Of a stretch of DNA of 64,000 nt, positions 10,096-63,134 are shown one piece after another. Within the stretch, counting starts at the first letter, position 1. Each line of letters starts with the position of its first letter. The notes below the pieces were generated by a model that did not search any database, was not told where the DNA came from, and was given only the letters and a program-made list of their open reading frames with translations. The DNA comes from Moniliella sp. 'wahieum' (taxonomy: Eukaryota). Both the position numbers and the translations under genes were made by a program. The stretch covers positions 310,001 to 374,000 of the forward strand of contig RSEE01000054.1 of assembly GCA_003971905.1 (NCBI GenBank). The letters are read 5' to 3'.

Positions 10096-12433
10096 CTACT
10101 TCATTAGCCAAGAGGCTGAACCACCACCGACTACCAGCCATTGATGCGGCAACTGGATCTGGGACCGTCCCGTGCCATCGTCAAACGTGGCGGAACCGAG
10201 CCATTCGCCAGGTTGGCTGCCATCCGACTCGGTCGCCGCAAACACTTCATAGAATGGAGTCCAGGGAGCAAAGTCAGGCCATTCGGCCAAGCCCTTCTGG
10301 TTGACCTGGACCACCCGATTCTCGTCCAGGGCCGAGCTGGGTGCAACGAGCGCCACAGCGCCCACCGTGATATCGACCGACTTGGTCTGCCCCCCCTTGC
10401 GCTGCACGTGAATCCCCAACTGCGCCACAGGTCCGACCAGAGCCGTCAAGTCCATCTGACCTTCACTCCGAACCCAATCTGACCCAAGGAGCGTCGAGGT
10501 GGACTCGGCGACTGGCTTGTCATTCATGCTCGGAACCAGCGTCACATCTTCGGATGACTTGAACACGCAGACGAGCTTGACCAGGGTAGGGTGATTTGCT
10601 ATGGCGAGATGGATCAAGGGGACAAAGGCAGCGGTGGTTGGGTCCTGGAAGGTGACGGCCAACTTGATGGCCAAATTGCCCGCCCACACTTCCAGCACCT
10701 CCTCCTGCACAGATACCGTGGCGCCCCGGAGCAAAAGTCCGACTGGGACCGAACATTCGGCCACAGCGCTTCGGGCTGAGGCATGGTTGCCCCGACATCC
10801 GTGTATCCGGCAGCTCCCTTTTCTGGGACGGGACCGGCGGCGATGGCCAGAACGGTGCGGCCCCGCACAGCCCATCGTGTTCCGGATCCTCGCGCAAACG
10901 AGGTGTAAAATCCGCGCGAAGCGCAGACGGGGACGGGATGGGGAGGAGGAAGTAGTAGGCCAAAGGTGCCGGTCCTTCCCCCGGTCTTGTCGCGCTCCAG
11001 AAGCCGGTGCGTGGTACCCCTGGGCAGGATGGCCGCGCCAAAATTTGACATCTTCTTCCCACCAGGCATCCCAAGACCGACCCTCTCGCCCAGGTTCCTC
11101 GTGCTCCCACGTCCAACCGGGCGCGAACAGGGCAACACTGAGACCGGAGGAGAGAGCGGTCGAGGCGAGGCCCTTGCCGAACCGATGGGGCATCACCATA
11201 TCCAAACTCTTGTACGTCTCGTGTCCGCCATAGCAGTTGCGTCCACACATCAATGCCAGTAAAGATCTGATTGCGAGGACGTTGACTGCCCAGCATTGAT
11301 GAGCGAACACAGCAGCGCCGGATGGAATCCGCCTTCTTCCGGCGTGCCATCGTACGGGGCGAAGGCAGGGCAGTGCACCTGGTACGGCAGGTAGTAGGTG
11401 GGACTAGCCCACGTATAATTGGTAAAGATGCTGTCGGCAGCCTGGAAGAAGGCTGGTTGAGGTTGGTGAGCGCATCCTGCCATTGAAGCAGTCCTTCCGA
11501 ATAGGTCACCGAGTCATACCAGCTGACGTGCCAGCTACGTTTGGGGCCCGGCCGCGTTCCCGCATCGACTTGCTTGTTGTAGGCTTCGACGCGCTCTTGC
11601 CCGGAACTGCGCAAATAGCTGACCCATGCTCGGAGGCGGCGTGCATTGCGCCTGCGTTCGCGCGCGCGCACAGCAGTATGCACCCAGCTTGGCCACTGCT
11701 CGGCGCTGCACTGGAACCCGAGCTCAAGGGGTAGTTCAATGTTGACCAACCAGCCATCCAGGCCACGCTCAATGGCCAGGGAAATCAGCACATCGGCGTA
11801 AAAGGGAGACACAAGGTCGTTCCCTTCGCCTCCGCCGGGCAAGGGCAAGTACTCGTCGTCAGGCCCACGCAGCAGTTGCGAAAGACCTGGGATGGCTTCC
11901 TTCCACTCAAAGATACTGTGTCAAGTCGCCGCGTTAGACGGGACGAGACGAGGGGCAGGGCAGGGTCAGAATACATACATGGTTCCCAAAATCTTCGTCC
12001 CAGCGCGGTGGGCAGCTTGAATCCAGGCCATGGGTGGGGAGGAAATGGTCTTGTGGGAAAAGTATACAAAGTAGTCGGCCAGTTGCCTTGGCATGGACAT
12101 GGTCAGCATCTTTGCGACTAGGATTCAGACAGGGGGCGAGGGAGGCGCACCAGTGCTCAAACGTGTATCCTCGCCGGGTAGGCGTCTCGTTGTACCCGCC
12201 CTGAAAGTCGTGGGCGACCATCAAGAGCGGGCGGTTGGGGTTACCGGGTGGCAGGGTGGAGGCAGCGGGGGTGCGCGCAGCTATGGCCTCCATGCCGGCG
12301 ACACTCAAATGCTGGCGGTGGTGCACAGCACTGGGATCGAGGGCGACCTCGGCCCACTCTCGAGGAGAAGGAGGTCCTCAAAGTAGGGCGGCGCATCAGT
12401 CGGGTCGGGCGGGAGGGAGAAGGAGGCAGGCAT
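10096..12433 (-). CDS. Cytosolic endo-beta-N-acetylglucosaminidase, glycoside hydrolase family 85
   Basis: GH85 motifs occur across frames: PYFEDL, LMVAHDFQGGY..YTFEHW, GLDGWLVNIE, SWYDSVT..GLLQWQDAL, FFQAADSIFTNYTW, IFTGIDVW, SVALFAPGWTWE. Several 1-bp frameshifts. Confidence 0.9.
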
Positions 12434-15480: not shown

Positions 15481-15489
15481 ATATATAAG
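15481..15489 (+). promoter_or_regulatory. TATA-like box upstream of the RpiB-family gene
   Basis: ATATATAAG in a very GC-rich context, about 85 bp upstream of the coding start. Confidence 0.45.
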
Positions 15490-15569
15490 CATCGCCACCC
15501 TCGGCCTCGCCTGCTGCTCCGCCCCCTTCTTTCCCACCGCATCCCTTCGTGTTGCTTCTCATCTCACCA

Positions 15570-16133
15570 CTGGCATCTCCACTCCACTGGAAGCTTGTTA
15601 TCGGCTCGGACGAGGCTGGGGTCGACTACAAGGCCATCCTCAAGCGGGACCTCGAGGCCGACCCGCGTGTGGTGTCGGTGGAGGATGTGGGGGTGAATGC
15701 CAGCACGGACAAGACGGCGTACCCTCACGTGGCCGTTGCTGCCGCCAAGAAGGTGGCCAGCGGAGAGGCGGATCGGGCTCTGCTCATCTGTGGCACTGGG
15801 CTCGGCGTTGCTATCTCTGCCAACAAGGTCCATGGCGTCCGCGCGGTGACGGCCCATGACTCGTTCAGTGTGGAGCGGGCGGTGCTTTCAAACGATGCGC
15901 AGGTGCTTTGCATGGGCCAACGGGTTATTGGCATTGAGCTTGCCCGGCGCCTCGTCAAGGAGTGGCTGGGATACAAGTTTGACCCCTCCTCTTCTTCGGG
16001 GCCCAAGGTGGAGGCCATCAAGTCATACGACTGTTGTACGTTAGCTCCCCCTCGCCCCTCTGTATGCCAAAAGGTATCGCATATGAAGAGCCTCGGAATG
16101 CTAACTGCCTGCTCGGGGGTGAATTTGACAGAA
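15570..16133 (+). CDS. RpiB/LacA/LacB-family sugar-phosphate isomerase (ribose-5-phosphate isomerase B-like)
   Basis: Motifs [63 protein letters not shown]. Intron 16036-16131 (GTACGT..GCTAAC..ACAG) completes a T|AA stop. The start reads CTCACCACTGGCA, so the ATG is probably broken by an extra C. Confidence 0.92.
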
Positions 16134-16900
16134 TCAAAGGCTGGCTTGGAGGAAAGACGAATGAATGGCCTTGGCCGCATGTCCTGTTGATGCGGTTGTG
16201 GTGTAGAGCAGGTGACTCTTCGAGACATGCACAGTCTACGAGAGAAAGGGCTGGCCAGTTGGCCACAACGAGTGAGAAAGAAGTTACCAAAGGGGTGCAA
16301 AGAGCGAAGCGAGCCAGGAGTGGAAAGACGGAGCCTTACCTCTGCAAAGAAGGGAGAGAAGAAAAGAGAAAAGGTGCGCATCGCCCCGCATGACCTACGT
16401 GTACCGCGAGCCAAGGACCGTGATTAATGAGACAGCATACCTGCTGTGAGAGGTCCTGGGTAACATTCAAGTCGTAGGAACAAATTCCAACTCGGTGTCT
16501 ATAGCACAGCCACGGTTTCAACCATACACTTTGCTTTCGTCTAGTCCGACAGCCCAGTGCCTCGTGCTCATCGACAAGCACGCTCAGATTGGTCTCGAAC
16601 CCCGTGCCCTGTGCCGTTCCACGCGCATCAGTATGTGCAGGTGTGGTGTCATATGTTCTCTCTTGAGCACATCATGACTTACACCTACACCCAGTCTAAG
16701 TGTGGCGTATTACACGAGTCGGTGTGGGAGCCCATCTTGCAGCTCGTGCCCCACCTCCACAACGAGCCCAGGGGGGGGTGCACGAGCGAACTGCAACGCC
16801 TTTACTGGAGCGCCGGGAGATGGAGCTGCTTTGACTGCTGTAACAAGGAGAATGCGACAAGATTGCCAAGTATCACGGGTGCACCCAAGAACCCTTCTTT

Positions 16901-18684: not shown

Positions 18685-19283
18685 ATGGCTGCCCGAGTTG
18701 CGCGAGACTTCCGTTCCGACACACTAACGGTGCCCAGTGACGAATCCATTGCTGCCATGGCGGATGCGTCGCGTGGAGACGATGTGTATCAGGAAGATGC
18801 GACTACAACTGAGTTTGAGGCCAGCTGGCTGCCTTGGTTGGTAAGGAGGCTGCCCTTTTCTGTACCAGTGGCACAGTCAGTAACCAGCTGGCCATTCGCA
18901 CCCACCTCACCCAGCCCCCCTTCAGTATCCTCTGCGACATGCGTGCCCACGTCTTTGTCCATGAAGCGGGCGGGGCAGCCATGCTTACTGGTGCTCACAC
19001 CATCCCTGTACTGGCCGAGACGAATGGCCACCACCTGGTATGGGAAGACCTAGAATCGAAAGTTGTTGCCGACGACGGTGATGTTCATGCCGCCCCTACA
19101 CAGCTCGTGTGTCTGGAAAATACCCTCAATGGCACCATTTTCCCCCAGGAGGAGATCGTACGGATTGGGAAGGAAGTGCACAAGCGGGGTATCAAGCTCC
19201 ACCTGGACGGTGCCCGACTATGGAATGTGGCAGCAGAGACGAACACGCCGCTGGCTGAGCTTTGTGAGCCCTTCGACTCGGTC
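18685..19283 (+). pseudogene. GLY1: Low-specificity L-threonine aldolase (GLY1-like), 3'-truncated
   Basis: Reads DFRSDTLTVP, GDDVYQED, GKEAALFCTSGTVSNQLAIR, AHVFVHEAGG, LENTLNG, LHLDGARLWN, CEPFDSV. Homology then stops just before the expected S-x-C-x-SKGLG PLP-lysine motif, and I found no continuation in the window. Confidence 0.8.
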
Positions 19284-22200
19284 AACCCTAGGCCGTTTCT
19301 GCCATCGCCCCTCGGGCATACGCGTTGTGCAAGAAGGAGATTGTTCGACGCGAAGGCCAAAGCAAAGCACCAACGTACAATCCTTGTGCAACGGGTGTCT
19401 AGCTCTGTTCCCTCGGTCTTCCTTGAGGGTGATTACGCCTGTGTTTAGTCCAGGGCTGCTTTTGGCACACTGCCAGTGGAGAGCAAGCATTGGTTGCCAT
19501 TCCTTATTCGCCTTGCCGCTCGGACTCTTGCCTGTGCGAGCAATGGTATGCCTGCCGACCATGTTGCAAAACCACAGCCTCGGAGCCGGGCTAGGCATTT
19601 GCGGTGGTTTGGCTGCTCAAGAATACAAGACGAGCAAGGTGTGTATCCGCAGAACGTTCTGGCCTCTACTTTGGCCACGAATGGGTCCAAGGCACTCTTG
19701 GTGTATGACTCCTCGGCTAGTATAGCAGTGCGTCCAGTCAAACTGGTGTGGTGGCCTCGTTTTGCTCTGAAATTGGGCGTAAGGAGGTGGCTCGAGCCAC
19801 CAACCTCGCCATCAGGATGGTACCCCAAAATGGTGAGGTCCGTTGCCGACCCCGTTCCCGTCACGCCGCCAATTGCCCAAGCTGGGCCGAAAGTAGCCAG
19901 CCAGCGTAGCGGGCCGGGCGGCCAGGCGCACCCTAAGACCTCGTGAGCTGGACGGGATGAAGCGTTGTGTCGGTCGTCCTTGCTTGAGGGGCATGTTTCT
20001 GTGATGGTCGGCTCTGGCTCGCGACGTGAGGGACCGTACTCACGGGTTCCCTGGGTTTTCTTCGTACGTTCATCCCCTCAAACAGCCGGTCGGCATGGAA
20101 TGCATGAGAACCACACCCTACCCGACTGTTGTTCCTCTGGTCTATGCCCTCGCTCGAACGAGGCGATGGTGCGTAGTCGGATGTCGATCCCGTCTCTGGG
20201 CGGGATGTGGGTCGGATGCAGGGCGGGAGGGGCCAGCTGGTGGTGGCAGGAGACGCAGCCCGAGCGGTGCTTACCGAACCGGTTCGTCTGGGCGATACAG
20301 GCGGCGGGGGTCACCGGTCACCGGTCACCGGTCACCCGAGCAGGACTGATTGCACGATTGAAACTTAAACGACTGTGGGGGTGAACCAACAAGCGATGGC
20401 GCCTCCTGACACGGCCAAGTGAACTGATTCCTTCTCCATCTCTCCACCACCTCCTTCTTATCCGCCTTGCCCACCGCCTGGAGATCGTGGCGAATCGTGT
20501 GTCCTGCCGTTATGAGGGTGCCCGCGTCCGGCGGGAACTCGCGTAACACCGACAGCCGCTACGCCAGGCAGTCGTGCGCTCAGCCCAAAACTTGCCACCG
20601 AAGCGGACAACCTGGCAGTTCTGATTCAGATCCATTCGAGTGATGGAGCGCAGCAGCCTGGCGGCCGGCCAGCGCGATGGTGCCGCTTCTATCCAAACAG
20701 GCCGCGAGTTGCTTGGGAACTGCCTATCCAGGTCATCGACGATCGCGATGCGTTTAACCTGCTTGCTCCTTCCGAAGGCGGGCTGGCAGGGAGGCTCCTC
20801 GATCGACGTTTGCGTCTCCCTCAGGGCCGATCCCGAGGGGGCCTGGCCACCAGCGATCGATGATTTTCCGCGTGCGCACCGCTAGGTCAAAGCAGGCGTC
20901 CTAGGTCGGACGGCGCGTCCGCCGCGTCCCAGGACGCGGCGGTGAGGTTGGGCCACAGGCGGCTCTGCGCCTCGTTGCACGGGTTACCGCTGCGGGATCG
21001 TCTGTTTTGGTGCGGGGGTTATGGAACCGAATATTCGACATCTGCCCCGTTCAATGAGAGAGGAGGATCTGGCGGCTCAGCTAGAGCGATGGGCGAGTAG
21101 CTCTGGCGTGAAGTGAAGGCAATCCGGGAGGGGCGGATCCGAGAGTGATGCGGCTGGTCAGAGGTGGGACAAAGCTCTTTCTCTTGCAGCCCGTATGGGT
21201 GGCTTAGGCTTCGAGTGCCAACAGTGGTGGTATTCCGGTTGCTTCTATTCAAGGCACTGATAAGACGGGGTTGGATTGGTGCCTTCCATTGCAGTGGGCT
21301 GCTGGTATCCTGATGCGACTGGGCTCATATCGCACCTGTCTCCCGCGGTGGTGCTGCGGCCAAGATGGTATTGACGCTTCCATCAAGGCACTCTGTGAGG
21401 CGGTGGGGCATCTCGTCGATCCACTTTTGGTTCCTGTTCGCATGCGACAAGCCTATGGCACCACCGCGTTCCTTTCTGTCATACGGCAGCGCCGAAGGGC
21501 GAGACGTGCCAATACAGTTTCCCTCTTTTCTGCGCCACGTTGGCACTGCTACTACATCCACTTGCTGTTCATCATGTATGGAACCACCCAACCCTTGTTC
21601 TCCAGTGACGTACTGACCAGGCCGCCAAACAGGTACCAATACGCTAGGCGCAGGACAATAGCCGATGGATGAAGCAAGTGATCGCCACTCTATATCAGCG
21701 GCATTTCCTCCGCCGCAGATCAAACACTCTCCAGGCAATGACAAGCCCGATGGTGGCGGGGAAGGTTGGCCAGGACGCGCGTCTACGGTGACCGGGGGGT
21801 GGGTGATGAGAACACCAGACAGGCGTTGCAAGATATCGATGACCATTAGGAAGATGTGGGTCGAATCTTGGCCAGCTTCTGCCGCGACCTGATGCCGAGG
21901 AAGACGGGGTTGCGCACTGCAGATCGCCTCGCGCAAGCCAAGGAATGTGGGTCAGTCATGCGGGTGTCGACCTGCGGGATGAGAAGCTGAGCTGGTGCTG
22001 ACTGTCCCTCGTGATGTGCTTGGTCGTGGTGCCGCCTCGCTGGGCTTACTGACCTAGGTTAGGCCCGGTGCGCCATTTGGTCGGTGTGCACGTGGTTCAT
22101 GTTCTCTGCGGGGGCCCAAGTTGCTGACATTTCGCATTGGTGGGTAGTAGGCTGTTCGACCCGTCACCCGCACCACCAGCACTCTTTGGAGGGTATGTAG

Positions 22201-23658
22201 GGCCCCCAAAACGGCGAGGCTGACCCAAGGTCCCTTCCCATCACGGCCTGGTTACAGAGCTGCGGTGGACGATGGCGGACCGAACCGAACGCGCATGAAA
22301 AGCCTGATGTGCCAGACGCAGAGCAAGGGTTAACTTGTTTCTGACGATCATGGTTGTGGGGCGTATTCGTTTGATCATTGGCTCTGGATTGTGTCGTGAG
22401 CGACCTTAGTGACAGCACTAACGGGTTGCCTGCGCATTGCTTCGTACGTCCATCCTCCCAAGCGGCCAGTGTGTGTAATGCATGAGAACCCTTAGAACGC
22501 GGCTTTTGCTTGGATCCACACTGAAGGGTGTGGGGGCAAGCGGATGATGGTATATAATAGTTGGATGGTCTATTCGGTGTCTGGACGCGATGGGGGCCGG
22601 ATCGGGGACAAGGAGGGCAGCTGGCGGTGGCAGCAGACGCCCGGCGAGTGTTTTTGCTTGTCGATGTGGACGGTGGAGGTCGCTTGCGTCGTGGTAAATT
22701 GCACGAATGAGAAGCAATGCAGTGGCTGGCGGTCGATTCGACCCCAACAAAGTGGGTAACCCGGTTGAGCGTCGAACGCCCACCACAGGTCCGTCTCCAC
22801 CATCGCCCCCTCCCACTCCATCCCCGCCAGTCCAACTCCTGCCGATCCTTCTCGTATTCCTTACCCATGGCATGCAATTCGGGGCGCTGTGGCACGACCG
22901 TGTGGCCCCCGGGCGTCATGCACAGACACGATGCGGGGGAGAACGCGCATGGCGGTGCTGGCGCACCGGAGGCAAGCTGAACCCGGGCCGCCGAAGCCGC
23001 TGACCAGCGGTCCTGATCCAACTCAAGTCGGCTCACCAACACCATTCCAAAAGCAGGGGCTGCAAGGCCGTGGACAAACCAAATCCATGCTGGACCGCCC
23101 CGAAAGTGTGGCCTCGCCGAGGGTGTAGAAAGGGGGGGACCATGACCATCTGTGGCTCACTCAGTGCCTCGCAACACCTATCTCCCAACTCCAGCCAAGG
23201 GAATACACTTGTCCACCCCTCATCCCTGTCTTCACCTCTCTTGACCCTCCATTACCCTCCTTTTCCCAAATCTTGAGCGAGTGGGCAGTCCAATGACACG
23301 TGGGGCACACCTGGGAATCTACAGTTCATCCCTACCGCAACACGCATCACCCCCTCCCTCATCCTGCACCGCGTTCTTGCCTCCAGTACATTTCCTGCTA
23401 CCCTGTTCTGACCACGACAGGTGAACGAGCATATGTGCCAGGCGAACGAGCATATGTAAGGTACTGCATCCGGATTGCCCCATGCATAGCTAATCGAAAT
23501 TTCTAGTCACAACGTTGCCGCCGATCTCGCCTCAAGGTGAGAAATTGATACCGTGAGTCTATGATTGAGAAGTGCCACAACCCTGTACAAGAAAAGCTTG
23601 CGCAAGATGGTCGCCAAGGTCGAGACAATCTATACCCGACAGCTTGGCCCCAGGTTAC

Positions 23659-23705
23659 CCCCACCTATCCCCCACCTATCCCCCACCTATCCCCCACCTA
23701 TCCCC
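23659..23705 (+). repeat. Tandem 11-mer (CCCCACCTATC) x ~4
   Basis: Directly visible in the left subterminal region of the transposon. Confidence 0.9.
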
Positions 23706-23767
23706 GGACAGTCCGCAGCCTTGCTGGCAGGCTGGTGGCAAGGCTAGCCACAGATATTTTCACTAGG

Positions 23768-23830
23768 CTGGCGGCTAGGGCGGTGGCTAGGGTGGTGGCT
23801 AGGGTGGTGGCTAGGGCGGTGGCTAGGGTG
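23768..23830 (+). repeat. Tandem 12-mer (GGTGGCTAGGGY) x ~5
   Basis: Directly visible in the left subterminal region of the transposon. Confidence 0.9.
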
Positions 23831-23984
23831 CCACGATGCTATCAGATCAGGCAGTGGATTATCTTTAAAAGCATGCATTGCCATGGTTGTTTAGACACAG
23901 AGACGTAGAGGAGCGCCAAGGCAACGGCAGGTTGTTCGAGGAGCCTCAGGACGGCGGCAACCACAGAAGCTTTGCCTTCGTCGT

Positions 23985-24724
23985 TTAATCGCAGACCAAA
24001 AACATCATGGGGACACGGAGATGATAGGGATCGAAGGGCAAAGATACAAGAGCCATACAACTTGCGGCGTGGGGACGAAGCGTCATCGCGTTCGAGAGGG
24101 AGAATGAGTCCCGCAACCATACGGCGAACGATGATCTGTGTGCAAGCCTGTATATGTTCCGTGGTCGTTTCCTCAGCACTTGAGCGCCTTCTCCGATCAT
24201 CCTGCTTAAAGGTGTTGTCAGTATATGGGCGGATAAGGACAAAGCGCAGGTACTGACCTGGCCGGGGAAACCGTCGCCGTCGACCGTCCGCTGGAAGCGC
24301 CCCCGTCGTTGATCTTCAACTCGCCTTCGGGAGGTATGACCGGCATCTTGGCGCAAATGATATCAGGCAAGGCTGTGCCGCCAGGCGTGGCCGACTCAGT
24401 TCCGGTGGCTGCGCACAGGCCAGTCAGGACGGCAGGCATCACAGCATGGGGGGCGTGGACGTACCGAGGTCGGGCGCGTGCACGGCAGGGGGGCGTCAGT
24501 GGGCGGCGATAGCAGCACACGTATTCATGGTGATTAGTACAAGCCGTGCACACGGCAACAGCTCTGTAGTAGTGTGTGGCCAACGAGAGAAGAGAGGCTG
24601 TGGTGGTGGCGGTGGTGGTGGTAGTCGAGAGGCAAGCGCATCGGCGCAGCTGCGTGCGGTTATAGGCGCAACCACGGTGGCCCACCGGTGGTCCACCCGC
24701 ATGGCGCCAGTGTTGCCCCCCCAC
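23985..24724 (-). CDS. Putative spliced gene of unknown function inside the transposon
   Basis: Minus-strand intron 24257-24205 (GTCAGT..TACTGAC..TAAG) joins ..KMPVIPPEGELKINDGGASSGRSTATVSPA in frame to SRMIGEGAQVLRKRPRNIYRLAHRSS... The ends are uncertain. Confidence 0.4.
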
Positions 24725-24849
24725 GCCACCGCCAGCTCAAGGCGCCCACCTGCAGCCTGAGCGTTTAGTATATATATAGATTTTTTTAAGCTACGCACTT
24801 GAGATAGTCGTGACAGCAGCTATATACAGCACGATACTCCAGTCCAACC

Positions 24850-27800
24850 GTCTCGTTGCGAGAGAAGACCGCATTCGCACAAGTCGCGGTCAAGAGCGAA
24901 GGGAAATTGCCTCTTTACTCGCTCAACAAAACTATAAAAGGCAATCGAGAGGTGTGCCCGCCTCGTGTGCATCGAGCAGATTGTATCAGGAGACGATATA
25001 CATTGGGTCCTTCGCGGGCGAGACCGCATTTTCCACCTCATACATGTCCTCGAACTCGTCCATCCGCTCCAAGATGTCACAGTATCCCAATCCCTGGTCG
25101 CTCAGGGCGATTGTCCAGGCCCTCAAGGACGGGTTCATTGAAGAACCACACAAGGGACGATGGGATCTGATCGGCACAAGGACTCAGCCGATGGTCATGC
25201 TCAATAAGCATCCACGCGATCTGGCCATTCACATGTACCTTGGCGAATCTGTTCACCTGGTCAGCATTTCGCGCCTATCTTTCCCGTCTTGTGGCAACAC
25301 GACGCTGATAGCGACTCGTGGCACGGGATCGGAATCGACCTGGTCCAAGACGAGACGTCCAACCTGCTGAAGTACACCGGCAACAGGACACGCGCCTTCA
25401 TTCTTACTCAGTTGGACATAACCAAGTTGCGCCTCTAACGACTATACCATTAGTAAGTTTTCTTGCTCTTCACGCAGCGGCAATTCTTGTCGGGTTGACT
25501 GATGACTTCCACATCCTGGTACGACACAGGAACAAGGGACGGGGGAAATTGGGAAGAGCGTCAATCCCCTTCGAGCCAAGGCCTGTGGCCGAGCTCTGGT
25601 CCGTCTCCAGCTAGTGGGCTGGGCTGATGGTTTTGCAGACAATGTGTCCAATCGGCCAAGCTCTCTGAACAGCATGCTGCTGGGCAACATGCACGTTTCA
25701 CGTTCGCAGTCTAGATGGGCAAGGAACCTTTTCTCTTTGCATCGGAAACGGCCAAGTCTCTCCTCCCGTTGTGTGAGCAGTTGGTAAAACAGCTAGAACC
25801 CTAAGTGAGTATCGCAATCTAAGCCAAGTTGCCTTTGAAGTCGCCGCGATTCCTGGGCAAAAGCAGCATGCTAACGTCTTTTTCGAACTTGCAGGCAGTA
25901 TCACGAAGACCTCATCCCTGTCTGGGATTCGACCACCGAGGGATGGATCCTTGTACAGCCCGTGCTGCGGATGTAAAGGGCGACAACGTGGCCGCGAACG
26001 AGATGGCTTCCATTATGGGCATGACTGCCCACGTGTGCTGCCGTTTTTGCGATGGCGGACGGCAACGGGGAACGAATACGTTGGCGGAGAACGTGGCTGA
26101 CTGTCTTGTGCGTATACGACACCACTGGTGTTACTGCTGTGCATCAAAATGGGACTGAATATAACCGGCGGATACATCAAGACGGAAAAGGCGATCTACG
26201 TTCAAGTGTCGAAACTAGGCGCGAAGTCGATCACCAATAACTCGACATGGTCGTCAAGAACGACGGCCGTGTCGACGATCGGGCGAGCCAGACCGGGGTT
26301 AACGAACAAAAGTATATGAAAGACGTATCCTTTATCCTGTTCAAGTCCCGCAAGACTCTGGAGGACTCAGCCGGGGCGACGAATGGCAAGAAGCGGAAGA
26401 GGCTGCTTTCCAATTTGGACTCCGGCGTTCGTGAGCTGCTGGATGAGTTCAAGAACAACGGCTAAGTGTTCAACCCCTTTTGACTGTCCACGAATGGCAG
26501 GGGTGCTCGAGTTTCTCGGTCGGCAAGAGCCTGGCGATCGACGTCATGCACACAGTTCTCCTTGGGCGAGTCAAGGCCTCGGTCGAGCTGCTGACGGACT
26601 CGAACTTCGATAAGGGGCCCTCGCTAGCGCTGTGGCTGGATTCTTTCAACTCGTGGGGCATGGAATCGGTGGGTCGACGGCTCAATGGCACTAAAGTGGT
26701 TCACAGCATGCGCTCAGTCATCACGGGGGTTGACTGCAAGATATTATGCCAGACTCTCCCTCTGGTGCTGCCCAAGTTGGTGGCCACTCTGCGGTTGGAC
26801 TCCGCCAAGCCCGGCGTCACGGAAATGGCGAGACAGAGACTTCTGAGCAAGATTGAGAGGCGGAGAATGTCCGCAAGTGCATTGTGGCCGCCGCACGCAT
26901 TAAGTGGCTTTGCTACATCGATAGCTTCGCATTTCAAGACCGAGCTACATATGGCGTACATCTGAAACTGCTAGCTCTCCTAGGCCCGTGATCATCTTCG
27001 CTAGTCCAAGTTCACAACTACATTCTGCCCCGTACAGATGTGCCCACAGGAACTGCTTGGCAAGGCGTGATTCACATTTTCATGGCCATCGCTGCCATCG
27101 ACCCGGCCATGCTCGTTCGTCGCCCCAAGTTCCACTTCTGAGTCACCTCTCCCAGCAGGCGCTGTTGTGGGGTCCTCTCAAGAACGCTGACACACAGCGT
27201 GAGGAGGAGTTTGTCCGCGTCATGCGCAATGCGGTAATATTTACGAACCGCAAAGATATATGCTGCGACTTGAACTACAAGGTAGCAGCCCAGGAGAACC
27301 TGCAAAACCTGCTATGTGGAGGGCGGGCAATCGACATGCCGCGTGCAAAACTCGTGTCCCGCGATACAACCCCTGACGATGAAGGGGAGGATGTGACACA
27401 GGGTCTGCCCGGTGGGAACACCAAGAAATTGTCCGCAGAGGTCTGGATCGGCAGGGGCCGAGCAGCTTTGCAATTGAATGGTACACCGCCTCAAGCTGGC
27501 ACGACGATTCAGCTCTTGGGCCAAGGGCTCGGCAGTGTGTGGCAAGTCCCTCCCGCACCCGGTACCGGCCGCAACAGCCCTTCCAGCGCTGGATCGTGTC
27601 CGGCTTCGATCCAGACTGTGGCTAAGGCCAAAGTCATATCGGTGCACGACAAGGTTGGGCTTCCTGAACCAATGACAGCAGAGCGGCGTTCTGCCACTGG
27701 GCCGGTCGAAGATAGTCGACCTGCCATTGGTCCGCGTACAGCATGGCCAGCTTTGTGCCAGGGGGGACTGGGCGCTTGTTACCCAACAGGATATGGTGAC

Positions 27801-28403
27801 GTCCCCCCACCCCGCCATGCCCAGAACCATGATGCGCCGCCCTTCTCCATTGTGGCTGGATAGAACACGTTGCCGCCCAACGGCCTAATATGGTTGCTGT
27901 GCACCGGCGGGCCAATCCGACTCGCGAGGGGGGTCGGGAGCAGCGAGGACTGGTTCCAACCTTGTGCTCCCTGTGCTTGGGGTCAATGTCGCTTTGGCTC
28001 GCATCATGCCTATCGACTCGCATATGACATGCGAGGCCTTGAGCTACCCGCGCGTCCGCCCGACGCATGACTTACATTCCGGCTTCGCAGATCCACACCA
28101 TCTTTGGTTCCCTTAACGTCCAGCACAATTGCGTGAAGGCCAAGTGCCGGGTTGTCCCCAACAGCATTACGGATACAACCACTGGCTTGACGTTCGATGG
28201 GGTCCAGCACAACAACTTGTCTGGGATGTCGGCGGAACAGCGCTATACGTGCTCAACCACTTTGTCAACTCTTTCTCTCCCCACACCGATATATTCTGCG
28301 ACTTGCGGACTTGGCTTTTGCCCAGGACTGGGCGGTCGAGGGCGAGAATGTCCCTTCTGCCGACGATGTTTTGGAGGCAGTACAATCCGTAATGAATGTT
28401 TAG
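24850..28403 (+). CDS. Spliced DDE transposase, copy 1 (CACTA/Plavaka-related fungal family), N-terminus missing
   Basis: Motifs GWADG, KGDN..EMASIMG..CCRFC, IDVMHTVLLGRVK, CQTLPLVL, RRPKFH..H..WGPLKNADTQREEEF..TNRKDICCDL, NVQHNC and QHN..YVLN. Introns start at about 25452 and 25806. Collinear with 58930-62410. Confidence 0.75.
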
Positions 28404-29098
28404 ATATTTCCCGAATGGCTACTAATGATGGTAGTCACCACTGTTGATGTATACTCTACACCATCAGTCTATCACAGTTGCTAGCGACTTGGCTGAAAAC
28501 GGACACAGCACATGTGGCTGCCCAAAGATTGCCAAATTGCTGCGGGAGGCTTAGGCTCCAATGGTGCAACGGCCAATTCCTACTATTGGCTGGAGAAACC
28601 TCAGGTTCAATTCGTGGGTGGGCCATCTTTTTTAAGATGTCTCGAGGCTGGCCGCCGTTCACAATATTGTGATTAGAATAGCGGGCAAGGTTGTGACGAG
28701 CTTTATAGGCAGCAATCTAGGGACAACCTCGCTGGGCGGCCTTGCCGCAGTGTGGTCCAAGAGGTTGGGGCTAGCTGTGTTGGCGAGGCTGTGACAAGGT
28801 TGTGCCCCTCAAATCTAAAGACAAGCTTGTGGTGTGGCCGGCAAGGTTCTGGGCTAGAAATTTCGATTAGCTATGTGCCCGTAACCAAATGGGGAAGATT
28901 CGACGGGTGCCGTCTACGGTGACGAGGTGTCCGTTGACAGAGGTCGGAATGTGGGAAGAAACCAATCTCACATCGAAAAAACACAAGCCAAACAAGGTTT
29001 ATCGCTCTGTCAACTCTGCGGTGGGGCTTAGACAGGAGGGGGTTACCAAAACAGGGTCGTCAGCCAACAGTCAGCATCCTCGATCAGGGGGGATCCTT

Positions 29099-29150
29099 TA
29101 TCCCACCTTCCATTTCCGTTATCCCACCTTCCATTTCCGTTATCCCACCT
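29099..29150 (+). repeat. Tandem 21-mer (TATCCCACCTTCCATTTCCGT) x ~2.5
   Basis: Directly visible. Confidence 0.85.
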
Positions 29151-29208
29151 CCATTCTCGTCCCTTCCCACCTTTCTTGTCCAACTCCTGACGGTTTCCGG
29201 CCAACTGA

Positions 29209-30447
29209 TTGAGTAATGCAGGCAACCTCTCGTCTCCAATTAGATGCCTCATCTTCATCATCCAACCTCGTCCTCCAGCTTTCCATCCGCCCAATCACGC
29301 GAGCCTTTCTTCAGCGGCGTCGATTCGCCCTACCACACAGCATATCGCGTGGGTTCCTTTCACAGCTACGTCCACAGCCGCCCCCGCCCAGCTTCAGCCT
29401 TGGCAGTCTTTGTCCTCCACAGCATCTGCTCGTCCAAAAGCTCCGGAGGCTTCAGACACGTTACTACTCCCAAGCCGGCGCATATACAACTTTTCTGCGC
29501 ATGCGGCCGCCTCGGCTTCACGCCCAAGGAACGCAACAAGAGTCACGAGTCGTTGGATTCGGGGCTTACCAGGGCATTTTGACCCGTTGACGGCAAAAAC
29601 GAGCGCATCACACGAGTCCGTTGGTGGGTGGCCGAAGGTGATCCGTGGCTGCAGTGGGTAAGAGAACGAGGAAAGAGTGGAGGCGGTACGTTGGTGAAAT
29701 GACGTCCTAACCCGGTACAGAGTTGGTTACTGGCATGCCCGTCTCTCATTTTCGTTCCACCCCGGTCAACCTTCCATCGTTTGTACCATCATCAGCTCGG
29801 GAACGACTACCGGTCCGCTCATGACCGTCTCCCGCCTCTCGATGGCGACTGCCCCATTCACAGCTGTTACACATCCCCATTGCCCCTGCCAGTTGACATG
29901 GCTATCAAAAAGTCCAGGGCCAAAGCTTGCGATATGTGGGTATCCCCGCATCATCTCCTGTGCAAGGTCAGCTTTACGTTGCCCTTCCCCGCCTCCCCTC
30001 CCGCCACTAGCTCGAAATTGCTTTCGCCCCTGCTGGGACCATCCGCAGCACAGTTTGTCCGCCGGGCATGGCATACTATGTCCGGGAGGGACGCCGGAAG
30101 AATCAGCAGTGACGTCGTGCCAACACTGCTCCCGAGAACGATGGCGAGTACAACGCTTTCATGGGGCAATGTCGGCAACTTGGGGTGTCAGGTTATTGGT
30201 AACACATGGCAGCACATAGAAGATGGGGTGCTGGATATAGCACACAGTTGCGGATAAGCATCCTCCCAGCAATGTTGAGGATTGCATGGGCGTTGGCGAG
30301 ATGATCCTGGGCGAGAAGGACCTGGAGGAGAAGGACCTGGAAGAGATGGGCCTGGAAGAGATGAACCTGGAAGAGATGGATCTGAACCCTGAACCAGTCG
30401 TACAACTGGTACTGACAGATGTTGGGTGTGCCCAGTCTGAGCTCTGA
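29209..30447 (+). CDS. Hypothetical protein ending in an acidic pentapeptide repeat (xxLEE)
   Basis: Consecutive + strand ORFs. A 15-nt repeat at about 30307-30385 reads ILGEKDLEEKDLEEMGLEEMNLEEMDL. Gene structure unresolved. Confidence 0.3.
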
Positions 30448-39553: not shown

Positions 39554-39676
39554 TCCATAGCTAATCGAAAACGCCGGTAACAAGGTTCCGGATATAGATA
39601 TGTGAGGACTACGTACGAAATTCAAGGTGGGCAAGGCCCACAAGATTGTGCACCAGAAATTTCGATTAGCCATGTG
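39554..39676. mobile_element. MITE / minimal deletion derivative of the 23481-28877 transposon family
   Basis: Left end CATAGCTAATCGAAA (39556-39570) and right end AGAAATTTCGATTAGCCATGTG (39655-39676) match the large element's TIRs. Internal CAAGG motifs are present. No clear TSD. Confidence 0.75.
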
Positions 39677-40149: not shown

Positions 40150-41765
40150 TTACTCATACTGTGCAATAAAGGCGCGGTGGAACTTGCTGAAGCGGTCGAC
40201 GAACGCATCGGATTCCTTGGCCAAGAAGGTGGTGCGGAAGAACATGCGACCGGACGAGGTTGGGTCCTTGCCAAACCCCGATCCGGGAATCACACAGATG
40301 CCCGTCGCATCCAGCAGGGCAAAGCAGTAAAACTCATCGGCCTTGCGGCCCGCCTGGTCGGCCGCGGCCATCGCTTTGGGCGGCAAGTCGACTTCGGGGA
40401 AGAGGTACATGCTGCCCTGGGCCTCGCCACACTGCATGCGCGGCAAGGCATGGAAGGCTTCTTGCATCTTGCGCGATCGGGACTGAAGCGTGTGGAGGAT
40501 AGTGTCGCGTTCCGTAGCCCAAAGCGGATACGAAGGTTCTCCTTGCTGCGGTGGCTTGACCATAATGTCCACGCCAATCTGGCCCTGCACAGGCGGGCAG
40601 AGCGAGATGGAGGCCATCTTGTAAATCTCCGCTTGCACAGCGCGGTCAAAGTTGGTCAGTTCAAAGTACCGCCCCGCCGGCCACATTCGCCCGCAAAGCC
40701 CTTGGAGATGGAGTGGAACGAGGCCAACTCGACTTGGTGTGCGATCGCGCGCTCGGCCGGGTCCCGGGGAAGACGCAAAGTCAAGCAAGACCTTTTTGAA
40801 CGAGACAAAGGGCCGGGCAGCGGTGTAGATGTTGGGCTGGTACACTTCGTCGGCAAACACAACAAGACGCTTTTGGTACGCCAAGCGCAGGACATCAGCA
40901 ATGTTGTCGTACGTCATGACGATTCCCGTCGGGTTGCCCGGGTTGATCACCACCCGCCCGCACATCTGTCCCCTTAGCACGAGCCACATCGATTTCCTGC
41001 GCCAGCAGCGGCACATCCAGCTCCCACTCCTTGTCCGGGTTGAGCTGGTACCGCACCGGCTCGGCCGAGAGCACACGCAAGGTGGCGCTGTACAGGGGTA
41101 CTGTGGGATGGGGATCGCGACGCCGACCGAGGGCGAGGAGACCAGCACCTGGAGAATCAGCTGGATCCCCGCCGATGCGCCCGCAGTGAGGAAAATATGG
41201 TCGGGCGAGGTGAGATGGCCATCGCGCTCTGGAGGAAACCAAGGGGGGCAACCAGCGTCAGCGGCGGCAGGCAGGTAGGATGGCAAGGCAAGGCCAGAGA
41301 GACCGAGGAGGGGCTACGTACGAGAAATGTACTCGGCCACGTGCTGGCGGATGGTGTGGGCGCCCATGGACTGGGAGTAAGCGCCGACGGAGCCCACGTC
41401 GGCGAGGATGTCCTTGGCGCGTTGGATGGCGTCGGCGGGGAAGAGGGCGGCGGCGGCGGGCTGGTCCAGGAGCGAAGGCAGCTCGGTGAGCGCGGCGACC
41501 TGGCGCCAGAAGGTCAGTGGCGGCTGGGCGAGCGCGGGCTGCTGCTGCGGATTGCCAATGTTGCAGTACACGACCGAGTCGAACGGCAGGCCATCGTTGC
41601 CGGGCAGGCCGGCGAGGTGGGCCTTGCGCAGGCGGTCGGCATAGCGCTGGGCGCGCACGGCGAGCTCGCCGCGCACGGCGTACTGGGCCTCGCGCACAGC
41701 GGGGTTGATGGAGTCGAGGAGGAGAGGAGGAGGGCGGGGCGGGGGGGGGCGGTGGTGGTGGGCAT
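40150..41765 (-). CDS. ALT1: Alanine aminotransferase (class I/II PLP aminotransferase)
   Basis: AQYAVRGEL, YCNIGNPQQ, SVGAYSQSMG, IFLTAGAS, IPIPQYP, VINPGNPTG, ADEVYQ.N, SFHSISKG..GECGRRGG, GICVIPGSGFG, FRTTFL. Frameshifts between segments. Confidence 0.93.
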
Positions 41766-58409: not shown

Positions 58410-61400
58410 GAACCCAATCTCGACTCGTCTCATTTGCCCCGCAGCAGCATCCTCGGTCCGGGGAGAAAATGTGGCTGAGGAGGCAGACCGGGAGAAGAAG
58501 AGAAGAGAGGCTGATAGACACGCTCGGCACCTGACTGGCCTAATGCATCTCCCCGACGCTAGCGCGCTGAGCGAGACGACAAGGATCGCCGGGGTATTGG
58601 ATGGGCCGGCGCAGAAGGCAATTATGGCGGACGATCATGATGGGGCGGACGAGGACGACCAACTTGAGTTACAGTTCAACTCGGGCACCAACTTCTTGCA
58701 GTCACTCACTCTCTTCCACCCAACTGAGTTTGATAACACGTATCCGTTCGGAGACCTACCTGTCAGTGAGCATCTGGGTACCTTTTTGTGTGCTGGTAAA
58801 AAGCTCACTCTCGGCACTGATCAGATTGCGCTTTTGACGGCGATGCACCTGAGTCCCAGAAGCCCCCTCTCCACCTCCGTGATCAAGTTCATCATGGAAT
58901 TCGGCAAAGTATACGCAACTACCGTTGCGATGAGGAAGAAGGCCAGATTAGCGCCAGTAATCAACGAAGGGAACCTGTCTCTCTACTCGCTCAACAAGGC
59001 GATCGAAATGGTATACCAGCCTCGTGCATCGGAGCAGTTTTCACGGCTAGCGATCAGGTGACGGCTGTGCATTGTACTTCGGTCGACCGCATTGTTCAGC
59101 TCATGTTCTCGAACCCGTCCATCCGCTCCAAGATGACACTGTATCCCAAGAGTTGGTCGCCCAACGCGAAGGTCCAGGACTTCATGGACATGTTCGTTGA
59201 AAAACCATTGGAGACTATGGGATCTGATCGGATTATGAGCTGGCACAAGTCACTCAGCCGATGGTCAAGCATCCAGACGATCCGACGATTCACATGTACC
59301 TTGGCGAATCTGTTCACCTGGTTGGTATTAAGGCGCCTATATTTCCCGTCTTGTGGCAATACAACGCCGACAGCGACTGGTGGGATGGGCTCGGAATCGA
59401 GCTGGCCCAGGACGAGAAGACGAAACAACTGAAGGTCACAGGGACACGACCCTTCATACTTTTCCAGGTGGACAGGACCAAGCTGCGCCTCTACGACGAC
59501 TATACTATCAGTAAATGTTTTCTTACACTCCACGCAGGGGCGCGATTATTTTCTGGGTTACTGACTACGACACAGGAACGGGGACGGGGAGGAGATGGGG
59601 AAGGGCGTCAACCCCTCCTAGCCAAGGCCGGTGGTCGAGAACTGGTCCGTCTCCAGCTGGCAGGATGGGCCGGTGGTTTGGCAGGCAATGACGACCCCAA
59701 TGGGCCCAACTCGCTGAACACCCTGCTGCTTGGCAACATGCACATGCCACGGGCCGAGAATAGATGGGCAAAGAATCTTTTCCTGTTTGCATCGGAAACG
59801 GCCAAGTCGCTCCTCCCGTTGTGCGAGCAGCTGGTCAAGCAGCTGAAGTGAGTATTACATCCTAGGCCCACAAAATTGACTGTGAAGCCGCGGCAATTTC
59901 TAGAGGAAGGGCAGCATGCTAATGCCTTTTTCAACCTCACAGACAGTATCACGAGGAGCTCATCCCTGTGGGGATTCGACCAGCGAGGGATGGATCCTTG
60001 TACAGCCTGTGCTGCGGATGATATCAAGGGCGACAATGTGGGAGCCAACGAGATGGCTTCAATTATGGATATGACTGCCGACGTGTGACTGCGGTTTTGC
60101 GATTGCGGACGGCACCGGGAGACGAACACGGTGACGGAAAACGTGGACGACTGTCTGGTGCGTATACGATGCTGGTAGTGTGCTGAGTGTACATCAAAAG
60201 GGCGACGAACTGACTGGCGGACATGTCAAGACGGAAGGTGAACTACGTTCAAGTGTCGATGCTAGGTGCGAAATCGAACACCAACTCACATGGTCGTAGA
60301 GAACAATGGCCGGGTCGACGACCGGGCGAGCCAGACAGGGGTTAACGACAAGTATGTGAAGAGCGTCTCGGATATCCTATTCAAGTTGCGCAAGAGTCTG
60401 CAGGAAGAGACCGCAGAAGCGAGTACTAGCAAGAAGCGCAGAGGTCGGCACTCCCCGATTTCGTTTCCGAGGTCCGGAAGCGGCTGGATGCGCTCAAGAA
60501 AGAGGGCACTAGTGTTCACACCCCCTTTTGACAGTCCATGAGTGGCAGGGAGCTCGAGCTTTTCGGTCGGCATAGTCTGCCGATTGACGCCCTGCATACT
60601 GTTCTCCTAGGGCCAGTCAAGGCCTCGGTAGAGTTGCTGACGGACGCGAACGTCGACAAAGATCCATCACTAGCGCTGTGGCTGGATTCTCTCAACATGC
60701 GAGGCATGGAATTGGTGGGTCAGAGGCTCAACGGCACCAAATTGGTTCGCAGCATGCGCTCCGTCACCGGGGTCGACTGCATGAATTATTGTGCCAGACT
60801 CCTCTGGTGCTTCCCAACTTGGTCGCCACGTTGCGGTTGGACTTGACCAAGCCTTGCCTCACGCGAGCGGCGAGAAAGAGACTACTGAGCAAGATCGAGA
60901 AGCTAGAGAATGCCCGCAAGAGCATTGTGGCCGCCGCGCGCCTCAAGTGGCTTTGCTGCATTGATGGCTTCGCTGTCGAAGACCGGGACACATACAGCGT
61001 ACGTCTGTAATCCTCCTAACACGTATACACCCGTGTGATCGTCTGTGCGTTCGTCCAATAAGATCAAAAAACTGACATTTTATTGCTGCCCCTATATGTG
61101 CTCAGGACCTGCTGCTGGACACGGCGGTGATTCACATATTCATGGCCATCGGGGTCATCGACCCGGCCATGCTCGTCCGTCGCCCTGAGTTTCACCTTCT
61201 GGTCCACCTCTCCGGGCAGGTGCAGCTGTGGGGTCTCCTCAAGAACGCTGACACACAGCGTGAGGAAGAGCAGGTCCGGGCTCTGTGCAAGGCGGGCACG
61301 TCTACCAACCGCAGCAACAACGATATCTGCCGCGACTTGAACTACACGGTGGGAGCGCAGGAGAATCTGCAAAACCTTCTATGCGGAGGGCGGGCGATCG

Positions 61401-62410
61401 ACATGCCGCGGGCAAAACTCGTGTTCCGCCATTCAACCTCTCACAACGAAGAGGAGGTGACGCAGGGCAGGCCCAGTCGGAACACCAAGAAATTGTCCGC
61501 GGACGCTTGGATCGGGCGGGACCGAGCAGCTGTGCAATCGAATGGTCCACCGCCTGTGACTGGCACGACGCTTCAGCTCTTGGGCCAAGAGCTAGGCAAT
61601 GTGTGGCAGGTCCCTCCCGCACCCAGCTAGACGCAGGAGTCCTTTGAGCTCTGGATTGTGTCCGGTTTCGATCCAGACTGGAGGAGGCCAAAGTCATCTC
61701 GGGGACCACAGAAATGCCGCTGGTCCGCGTACATCACGGTCAGCTTTGTGCCAGGGGGGACTGGGTGCTTGTTTCTCAACAGGCTATTGATGGCGTCCTC
61801 CCGCCCGGTCATGCCCGGGCGCCTGATGCTACCCCGCCCTTTGCCAGCCGGATCGAACGTATTGTTTCCAAACGACCCTCCTATATGGCTGTTGCTCTTC
61901 ACCGGCAGACCAAGGCCGGTCCCACTCGCGATCAAGGGTCGGGAACAGCAAGGGCTGCCAGTTCCAACCTTGTGCTCCCCGTGCTTTGGGTCAGGGTCGC
62001 TTTGGCTCGCATCCTACCTATCGACTCGGCATACGGCATGCGGGGGCTCGAGTTACCGCTCGCCTCGGACCGGCGCACGGTGACCATTCCGGCTGCGCAG
62101 ATCGACACTATCTTTGGTCCACTCAACGTCCAGCACAATTGCGTGAAGGCCAAGTGCCGGATTGTCCCCAACAGCATTCCTGATCCGGTCACTGGCTTGA
62201 CCTCCGATGCGGTCCAGCACAACAACTTAGCCGGGACGTCGGCGGTGCAACGCTACGTGCTCAACCACTTTGTCAATTCGGTCTCTCCCCACACACCAAC
62301 ATCCTTCGACTTGCTGACTTGGCCTTTGCCCAAGACTGGGCAGTCGAGGGCAAGAATGCGCCTTCGGCCGACGACGTTGTGAGCGCGGTACAAGCAGTGA
62401 TGAACGATTA
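58300..62410 (+). CDS. Spliced DDE transposase, copy 2 (same family as 24850-28403), with N-terminal region present
   Basis: Collinear diverged homolog of copy 1: YSLNK, NPSIRSKM, IHMYLGESVHLV, LFLFASETAKSLLPLCEQLVKQL, KGDN, IDALHTVLLG.VK, RRP.FHLL.H, DTQREEE, NVQHNC. Shared intron positions at about 59511 and 59848. Extra acidic and YPF-containing N-terminus. Confidence 0.75.
58373..58406 (+). repeat. (GAGGAC)n hexamer
   Basis: Directly visible. Reads EDEDED. Confidence 0.85.
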
Positions 62411-63134
62411 GACGGTTTTTTGCGGATGTGGCTACTCTACTGTAAGACCGGAGGAACCCACAAGGATTTGAGTGGAGAACCTCTGGAGATGTAGAGTAAT
62501 GCAATCGCGCGATGGTGATGGTTGAGGTGTATATAACCCTTTTGCCACGCATGGAGGAGACATAGGGGTTCGAACAAGCCGGAGTATACACCCGGAAGCA
62601 GAGGATTCGGTGGAGGCCCCAACAGCTACTACTGTTGAGGCGACGCAGCTGTGCGGGTTGAGATTCATTGCGCAGCAGAGAGGAAGGCCACTGGGAGGGG
62701 TGATGGCTACGGTGGCGAACTGGACTGCCCTGAACTGACGATGACTGTTGTGCAGCATTGCTGCGTGTGCGGCGCAAGGAATGCGCCTTGAAAGCTCTGT
62801 GAAAAATATGGTTCCAGTATAGAGATACTATACACCTGTTGCAGATTACTATTGCCCGTTGTTTTTGTGTTGTACCAGCCCAACAGTAGAGACGATACCG
62901 TGGCCTCGACCTGAATGCATCTATTACAAGGCCCGCTATGCAGTGTAGTGGAAGAAGAAAGGAAAGAAAAGAACGGGAGGGATTGAACCGATATAACTTC
63001 ATATAGTTGCGCGGCAGCGCACGCGAACCGCGAACCGCGAACCCCGAAGAGAGAGGGGGCCTAAACTAGTGAGCGCGGGGGGGGGGCAAACGAATCCATT
63101 CTAGCAAGAGAGCGGCACGAGGATCCAGAAAACG

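Follow-up and report, generated by a model that had tools for sequence, protein, structure and literature searches.

Among DNA transposons, members of the CMCT clade have been described as sharing CxxC and H(3-4)H motifs in the transposase, CA...TG ends as well as target-site duplications (TSDs) that measure 2-5 bp (Kojima 2025, PMC12730594; here and below, the portions of that publication on which this work draws). Of the lineages described there, fungal EnSpm combines CAC...GTG ends with TSDs of 3 bp; PlavakaA and PlavakaB end in TGT...ACA and CATCA...TGATG, respectively, and make non-specific 2-bp TSDs; and ESTA (EnSpm-like transposons with TA TSDs), reported from rusts and Agaricus with RAG1 as its HHpred match, has listed autonomous consensus lengths of 6.6-13.9 kb, carries TET/JBP in some members and begins with CAC in 60 of the 60 starts viewed (PMC12730594). 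CNEST of Cryptococcus neoformans is an active element of 7.2 kb with TA TSDs, a CACGG start and 33-bp terminal inverted repeats (TIRs), according to the part of its description used here (PMC12810828). We analysed a 64,000-nucleotide stretch of the Moniliella sp. 'wahieum' genome (contig RSEE01000054.1, positions 310,001 to 374,000; hereafter the window), which contains a transposon at 23485-28875. We consider it quite likely that this is a CMCT-clade transposon with a 2-bp TSD, present as a dead copy that was spread in trans, and with a protein lineage that is most likely the one of ESTA and CNEST.

Results

The element is bounded by inverted repeats of 22 bp that are 100% complementary, the left TIR at 23485-23506 (+ strand) beginning with CATAG and the right TIR at 28854-28875 (- strand) finishing with CTATG. 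These repeats had been reported correctly in an annotation made earlier from the letters of this stretch (the original prediction). The 22-mer has three matches in the window at up to three mismatches and none in 100 shuffles; the genome-wide search that had been proposed for it returned 114 matches at up to two mismatches, with none for a reversed control. Comparison of the genomic copies located the boundaries of the element, since similarity among them stops at CATAG...CTATG and the terminal C of CATAG starts 159 of 177 distinct ends, so that the termini first read as CACATAG and CA[TG]CATAG have to be replaced.

The duplication was likewise reassigned. Five of five flank paralogs fetched without the element read GGATTGC-CCCA-GG-C.., and the filled site in the window reads CCCA-TG-[element]-TG-CCC. 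Because both C runs are already present in the empty paralogs, they belong to a host repeat and predate the insertion, and the duplicated bases are TG (23483-23484 and 28876-28877) instead of the CCC first proposed, in agreement with the termini of other copies. The element therefore spans 23485-28875 rather than 23481-28877. Among 78 paired elements, comprising 60 MITEs (miniature inverted-repeat transposable elements) and 18 long copies, 58 carry an exact 2-bp TSD (48/60 MITEs and 10/18 long copies; chance expectation 6.8%), two a 3-bp TSD and none a duplication of 4-7 bp; this tally excludes 16 loci lacking a partner end at MITE distance. A CCC duplication combined with CAC ends is ruled out by the tally and the empty paralogs, and the window element is a delimited DNA transposon with ends CATAG...CTATG and a 2-bp TSD, here TG.

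Nine of the ten dinucleotide classes are represented among the 58 exact duplications (CA/TG 17, TA 13, AA/TT 8, AG/CT 6, CG 5, GA/TC 4, CC/GG 3, AT 1 and AC/GT 1). Pyrimidine-purine (YR) steps make up 35 of them against a background of 25% (P 9e-9), and TA is the most enriched target (13 versus 1.6 expected), accounting for five of the ten TSDs of long copies. Seven ends lack the terminal C (copies L042, L142, L037, L185, L188 and L199). L042 and L142 read ATAG...CTAT at both ends, as though cleaved one base further inward, and are flanked by matching 2-bp sequences (TG and CG, respectively); the tally scored these short-end TSDs as non-matching.

Subterminal repeats, a trait of EnSpm/CACTA elements, are present as well. 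CAAGGT recurs at both ends, as had been noted, with five occurrences on the + strand (23533, 23615, 28686, 28795 and 28842) in 456 subterminal bp where 0.23 are expected, whereas its window-wide frequency is at chance level (39 versus 31.6). A near-palindromic motif picked after looking, CAASSTT, fits better (10 versus 0.18 expected), with motifs of either type at 23510, 23533, 23603 and 23615 on the left (23510-23650) and at 28686, 28724, 28795, 28822 and 28842 on the right (28686-28850). The 60 MITEs carry a mean of 1.9 CAAGGT per copy. Inward of the left motifs lie short tandem arrays of 11-bp and 12-bp units (23648-23834) whose copy number varies among copies.

The transposase gene is a pseudogene on the + strand at 25044-28400, delimited through a profile of relatives, splice signals and the ratio of nonsynonymous to synonymous substitution rates (dN/dS), with an uncertain start and with introns predicted at 25453-25529, 25805-25894, 26108-26181 and 26956-27049 from splice signals compared across copies. 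No single open reading frame (ORF) spans the whole gene, and Pfam gave nothing credible for ten window ORFs, with no match to PF18759 or TET/JBP. Searched against 1.84 billion proteins, an open stretch of 336 aa from copy L041 gave 12 matches at E<=0.001 (best 2.5e-11). The ten looked up are hypothetical proteins, seven of them from Tilletia species and three from Agaricomycetes, which bears out the suggestion of an abundant basidiomycete family whose members are annotated as 'hypothetical'. One Sporobolomyces protein and, from a later search, one chytrid protein also belong to the family. Homolog searches with alignment A1 and with relative P0003 returned four Sporobolomyces proteins and nine proteins, respectively; a word-based search with P0001 among longer proteins found none, and a PDB sequence search with A1 gave nothing significant.

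The motifs common to these relatives (DDxSG..SKxWNKH, DNP, CxxC, HxxLLG, KPKxHxxxH, GP and ERFE) align with WADG, GDN, CRFC, HTVLLG, RPKFHLLSH and QREEEF of the element, and the transposase motifs of the original prediction are indeed in the sequence. On the + strand, a candidate first catalytic Asp, located in WADG and corresponding in the alignment to the first D of DDxSG, is at 25626-25628; the putative second Asp (GDN) with the CxxC motif at 25982-26050; HTVLLG, with its conserved His, at 26549-26566; PKFHxxxH, which a 1-bp gap interrupts in the window copy, GP and a candidate catalytic Glu (27204-27206) at 27124-27206; and the C-terminal family motif NVQHNC, recognised from the relatives' alignment and profile, at 28115-28132. 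A profile built from 11 relatives matches consecutive blocks of the element in order when majority-consensus frames are used (best E 9e-26), and hhalign gave a probability of 98% across the HxxxH/GP/E block of copy L033. The alignment suggests a DDE transposase with CxxC and HxxxH motifs in which these residues would have the catalytic roles. The CxxC/HxxxH alignment, the CA...TG termini and the 2-bp TSD agree with the CMCT clade, and the broader proposal of a delimited transposon of this CACTA-related (CMC/CMCT) clade with subterminal repeats stands. Against the 82%-identical copy L042, dN/dS is 0.06-0.43 in 10 of 11 blocks with an excess of third-position changes, and the gene has thus evolved under purifying selection.

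Assignment to a family was less clear-cut. Transposase_21 (PF02992) matched 6 of 20 aligned proteins weakly (best E 0.0015) and none of the element fragments, and PF18759 (Plavaka) matched 0/11 and 0/20 aligned proteins; a PF18759 search of the element's own genome gave no match, but as no control genome gave one either, this negative is uninformative. The 30 matches of a language-model search, whose recognition value is low, fell in unnamed clusters (22, at 0.96), Plavaka (7, at 0.95) and Transposase_21 (1, at 0.92), a ranking that places the protein in the clan and not in a family. The label Plavaka-like therefore holds at the level of the clan and fails at that of the family. A predicted structure of the Sporobolomyces relative P0013 (mean predicted local distance difference test score, pLDDT, 53) had RAG1 as its top structural match (Foldseek E 1.8e-6), with Z 13.2 and a root-mean-square deviation of 4.7 over 416 residues, followed by Z 12.3 against RAGL and 10.3 against Transib. 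Residues 253-375 of the same model match many BAH-domain structures (Z 5.4-7.1), possibly a chromatin-reader module; a BAH-like N-terminal domain is not claimed for the window element, as the corresponding region failed to align to the family profile.

A DNA search of the genome yielded 11 near-full copies, ten of ~5.3-5.4 kb and one of 4.9 kb, besides one diverged copy and five of ~3.6 kb (L043-L047) that are 97-99% identical to each other and have in common an internal deletion of ~1.76 kb removing the HTVLLG-to-E region. The window copy is dead, a point overlooked in the original prediction. A nonsense codon (26463-26465), a 7-bp insertion finishing in an in-frame stop (25798-25804) and a 1-bp loss near 25266 are each common to 7/11 near-full copies, and the number is 4/11 each for a loss of 2 bp near 25437 and for a weakened splice donor at 26956; one short-read contig spans this degenerate donor without a letter difference. 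The six closest copies (the window copy and five sisters), which lie at different loci and are 0.35-1.6% apart with perfect TSDs in 4/6, all carry the same nonsense codon, 7-bp stop insertion and 1-bp loss. Since these lesions are common to all six, a dead copy has probably been multiplied in trans, and neither an uninterrupted transposase gene nor an intact helper was found in any copy examined. The 7-bp insertion includes the telomere-type hexamer CCCTAA and does not duplicate the adjoining seven bases.

Equally overlooked was a family of MITEs of ~117 bp with the CATAG/CATGG ends of the full element, which was found via a second end pattern (46 exact genome matches) and of which 60 paired copies were examined. 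One of 119 bp with the same ends lies in the window at 39556-39674, its flanks (TC and TG) unmatched. Non-autonomous derivatives of intermediate size, with the same ends, are L190 (956 bp) and L199 (460 bp), and an older decayed relative, 77-79% identical and with no terminal repeats found around it, occupies 58965-62412 (+ strand).

A second family of the same transposase lineage, ~9.2 kb long with CACGGGCG ends, occurs in this genome, and its transposase is 22% identical to that of the window family. Its five copies are >99% identical (contigs C19, C3, C16, C20 and C153; L134-L138, L150-L154), start with CACGG like CNEST and show TSDs of TT, TA, GG and CT in 4/5 cases. The copy on C153 has 10 kb of downstream sequence in common with C16, and its flanks are unmatched. 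The tree joins the window element with this family, one consensus block being absent from the row concerned, and the pairing may reflect long-branch attraction. Of 24 metagenome loci, 12 were checked for the ends of the wider family (7 of them by repeat search as well), and none of these 12 gave a convincing TIR with TSD.

Diverging from the transposase on the - strand is a predicted spliced unit (23845-24800) with introns at 24202-24257 and, more weakly, 24757-24798. Its intron signals are conserved in 16/17 long copies; splice-like signals are kept and a coding signal was not seen, no frame having consistently low dN/dS and no credible match resulting from the language-model search, which leaves a coding role unsupported. 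The element is nested in a dispersed host repeat (window ~21205-30275) with ~90% identical paralogs on several contigs. The same host repeat received a high-copy repeat of ~0.5 kb (~29000-29527; at least 40 loci, approximately) that is absent from all five paralogs examined. Elsewhere in the window, ORFs at 10096-11920 and 15489-16190 presumably encode, judged by eye, an endo-beta-N-acetylglucosaminidase and a ribose-5-phosphate isomerase B, and those at 18819-19448 and 40150-41313 a threonine aldolase and an alanine aminotransferase. Several of these neighbouring ORFs seem frameshifted, consistent with an indel-rich assembly.

Discussion

We propose that a transposase of RAG1/Transib fold would bind both the TIRs and the subterminal CAASSTT motifs, beyond which the MITE retains little. 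RAG and Transib excise through flank hairpins, and by analogy with their biochemistry cut-and-paste excision here would probably take the same route, with insertion at a bendable YR step that is cut with a 2-nt stagger, the bendability preference also being borrowed from RAG/Transib. Coding capacity would have been lost first, with an intact sister not seen in the assembly later driving multiplication of the copy in trans. The mechanism itself is not new.

In view of the match to RAG1, the range of hosts and the second family of this genome, we favour, with reasonable confidence, a protein family shared with ESTA of rusts and CNEST of Cryptococcus and represented here by a long-branch offshoot without strict TA targeting. 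Several observations weigh against this interpretation or parts of it. The connection with ESTA and CNEST is an indirect one. The exact TSD is absent in 8/18 long copies, and the first 68-codon block has a dN/dS near 1. The assembly is rich in indels, so that polishing could have created some of the shared lesions; gene conversion is another way in which they could have spread. The 336-aa fragment of the element, which does not include the first D and the E, modelled poorly (mean pLDDT 57) and gave no fold match, so that the RAG1-like fold is shown for the relative P0013 only. The element is 15-27% identical to the relatives included in the tree, where its branch is long and unplaced, as is that of the second family of this genome, and neither a rust nor a Cryptococcus protein was recovered in the searches with the L041 stretch, A1 or P0003.

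It is conceivable, though we lean away from it, that the element represents an unnamed CMCT lineage apart from ESTA, CNEST, Plavaka and EnSpm or, if it is an ESTA, that TA specificity was lost in this host, a loss for which the two 22%-identical families of this genome are the basis. We regard as unlikely the specific proposal of a separate unnamed lineage that is sister to ESTA/CNEST, works by the same mechanics and is marked by non-specific 2-bp TSDs. The TA duplication that defines ESTA occurs in only 13/58 of our TSDs, two divergent families of this genome duplicate varied dinucleotides, and among the supplement sequences viewed, 60/60 ESTA 5' ends start with CAC and no sequence of any kind starts with CATAG or CATGG (PMC12730594). 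However, TA is still the most enriched target, the second family has CNEST-like CACGG ends, RAG1 is the top structural match of both ESTA and the window family, and the occurrence of ESTA in rusts and Agaricus, as far as described, meets a family that is common in Agaricomycetes.

Far less probable is an autonomous, currently active element whose lesions stem from errors of long-read assembly. Private indels number 11-19 in each of the six closest copies, many of them being of 1 bp, and two of those in the window copy are restored by short-read contigs of depth ~3 from one metagenome run; these contigs may stem from sister copies, so the restored indels only suggest assembly error. The TIRs and TSD are perfect and the copies 99.2-99.7% identical. 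However, the substitution-type stop, the 7-bp insertion and the changed donor recur in 4-7 of 11 copies and are absent from the rest, and no copy examined has an uninterrupted gene. Finally, a CACTA/Plavaka element spanning 23481-28877, bounded by CAC termini and flanked by a 3-bp CCC TSD, can be dismissed: CCC does flank the left CATG... and the right ...GTG, and some relatives show the weak Transposase_21 matches and the Plavaka cluster score given above, but both C runs occur in the empty paralogs, the extra bases occur in no other copy, 3-bp TSDs are nearly absent and the Plavaka profile has no match. With its termini and TSD corrected, the earlier argument from CAC ends and a 3-bp duplication falls.

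Under the preferred interpretation as well as under that of an unnamed lineage, widespread 'hypothetical' fungal proteins become tied to defined ends, and the 117-bp MITE represents a minimal cis sequence. A fungal transposase family missed by Pfam and labelled hypothetical by NCBI thereby gains corrected ends, a spectrum of targets and a minimal non-autonomous derivative, and the dead full-length copy and ~60 MITEs point to recent trans-mobilisation in this genome. If the family is that of ESTA and CNEST, TA targeting is not fixed in the lineage, which bears on its classification, and the family provides a natural contrast for studying how target sequence and stagger are selected by RAG1-fold transposases. 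The suggestion of a possibly undescribed family is only partly upheld: our literature search, which did not extend to Repbase, Dfam or subscription journals, found no description of a CATAG-ended fungal element, and novelty is reduced by the fungal CMCT lineages with defined ends already given by Kojima 2025 (PMC12730594). Non-specific 2-bp TSDs likewise have a precedent in the clade, namely in Plavaka.

Compared with known systems, the element agrees with the end and TSD definitions of none of the named lineages and is therefore not filed under any of them. In its mode of operation it resembles ESTA and CNEST. RAG1, RAGL and Transib are animal elements that make 5-bp duplications. The modelled catalytic fold of P0013 resembles theirs (PDB 6dbi, 6b40 and 6pqn), at 10-12% identity. 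With EnSpm/CACTA the element has in common short TIRs, subterminal repeats and a probable DDE transposase with CxxC and HxxxH, and relatives show weak Transposase_21 matches (6/20); unlike fungal EnSpm as described, it has neither CAC ends nor a 3-bp TSD, and its fragments do not match Transposase_21. Plavaka is similar as a fungal CMCT lineage with non-specific 2-bp TSDs, and PlavakaB ends agree in the first three bases, whereas the reported TGT and CATCA ends differ from CATAG/CATGG and PF18759 is unmatched in the element and 20 aligned proteins. CNEST is likewise a fungal CMC-type DDE element outside CACTA proper with a 2-bp TSD and short TIRs, and differs, in the portion of its description used, in its TA TSD, CACGG start, 33-bp TIR and 7.2-kb length, the window element showing neither TA nor CACGG. 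ESTA differs, as far as described, in its TA-only TSDs and CAC ends, where the family here has CATAG ends and, next to TA in 13/58, eight other classes, and in its length of 6.6-13.9 kb with TET/JBP in some members, where the window element has 5.4 kb and no TET/JBP match. Both ESTA and CNEST are set apart from the element by these descriptions of ends and TSDs and not by a comparison of transposases. The RAG1 match that ESTA and the window family have in common, and the frequency of the latter in Agaricomycetes, suggest that ESTA probably covers the protein family of the window element.

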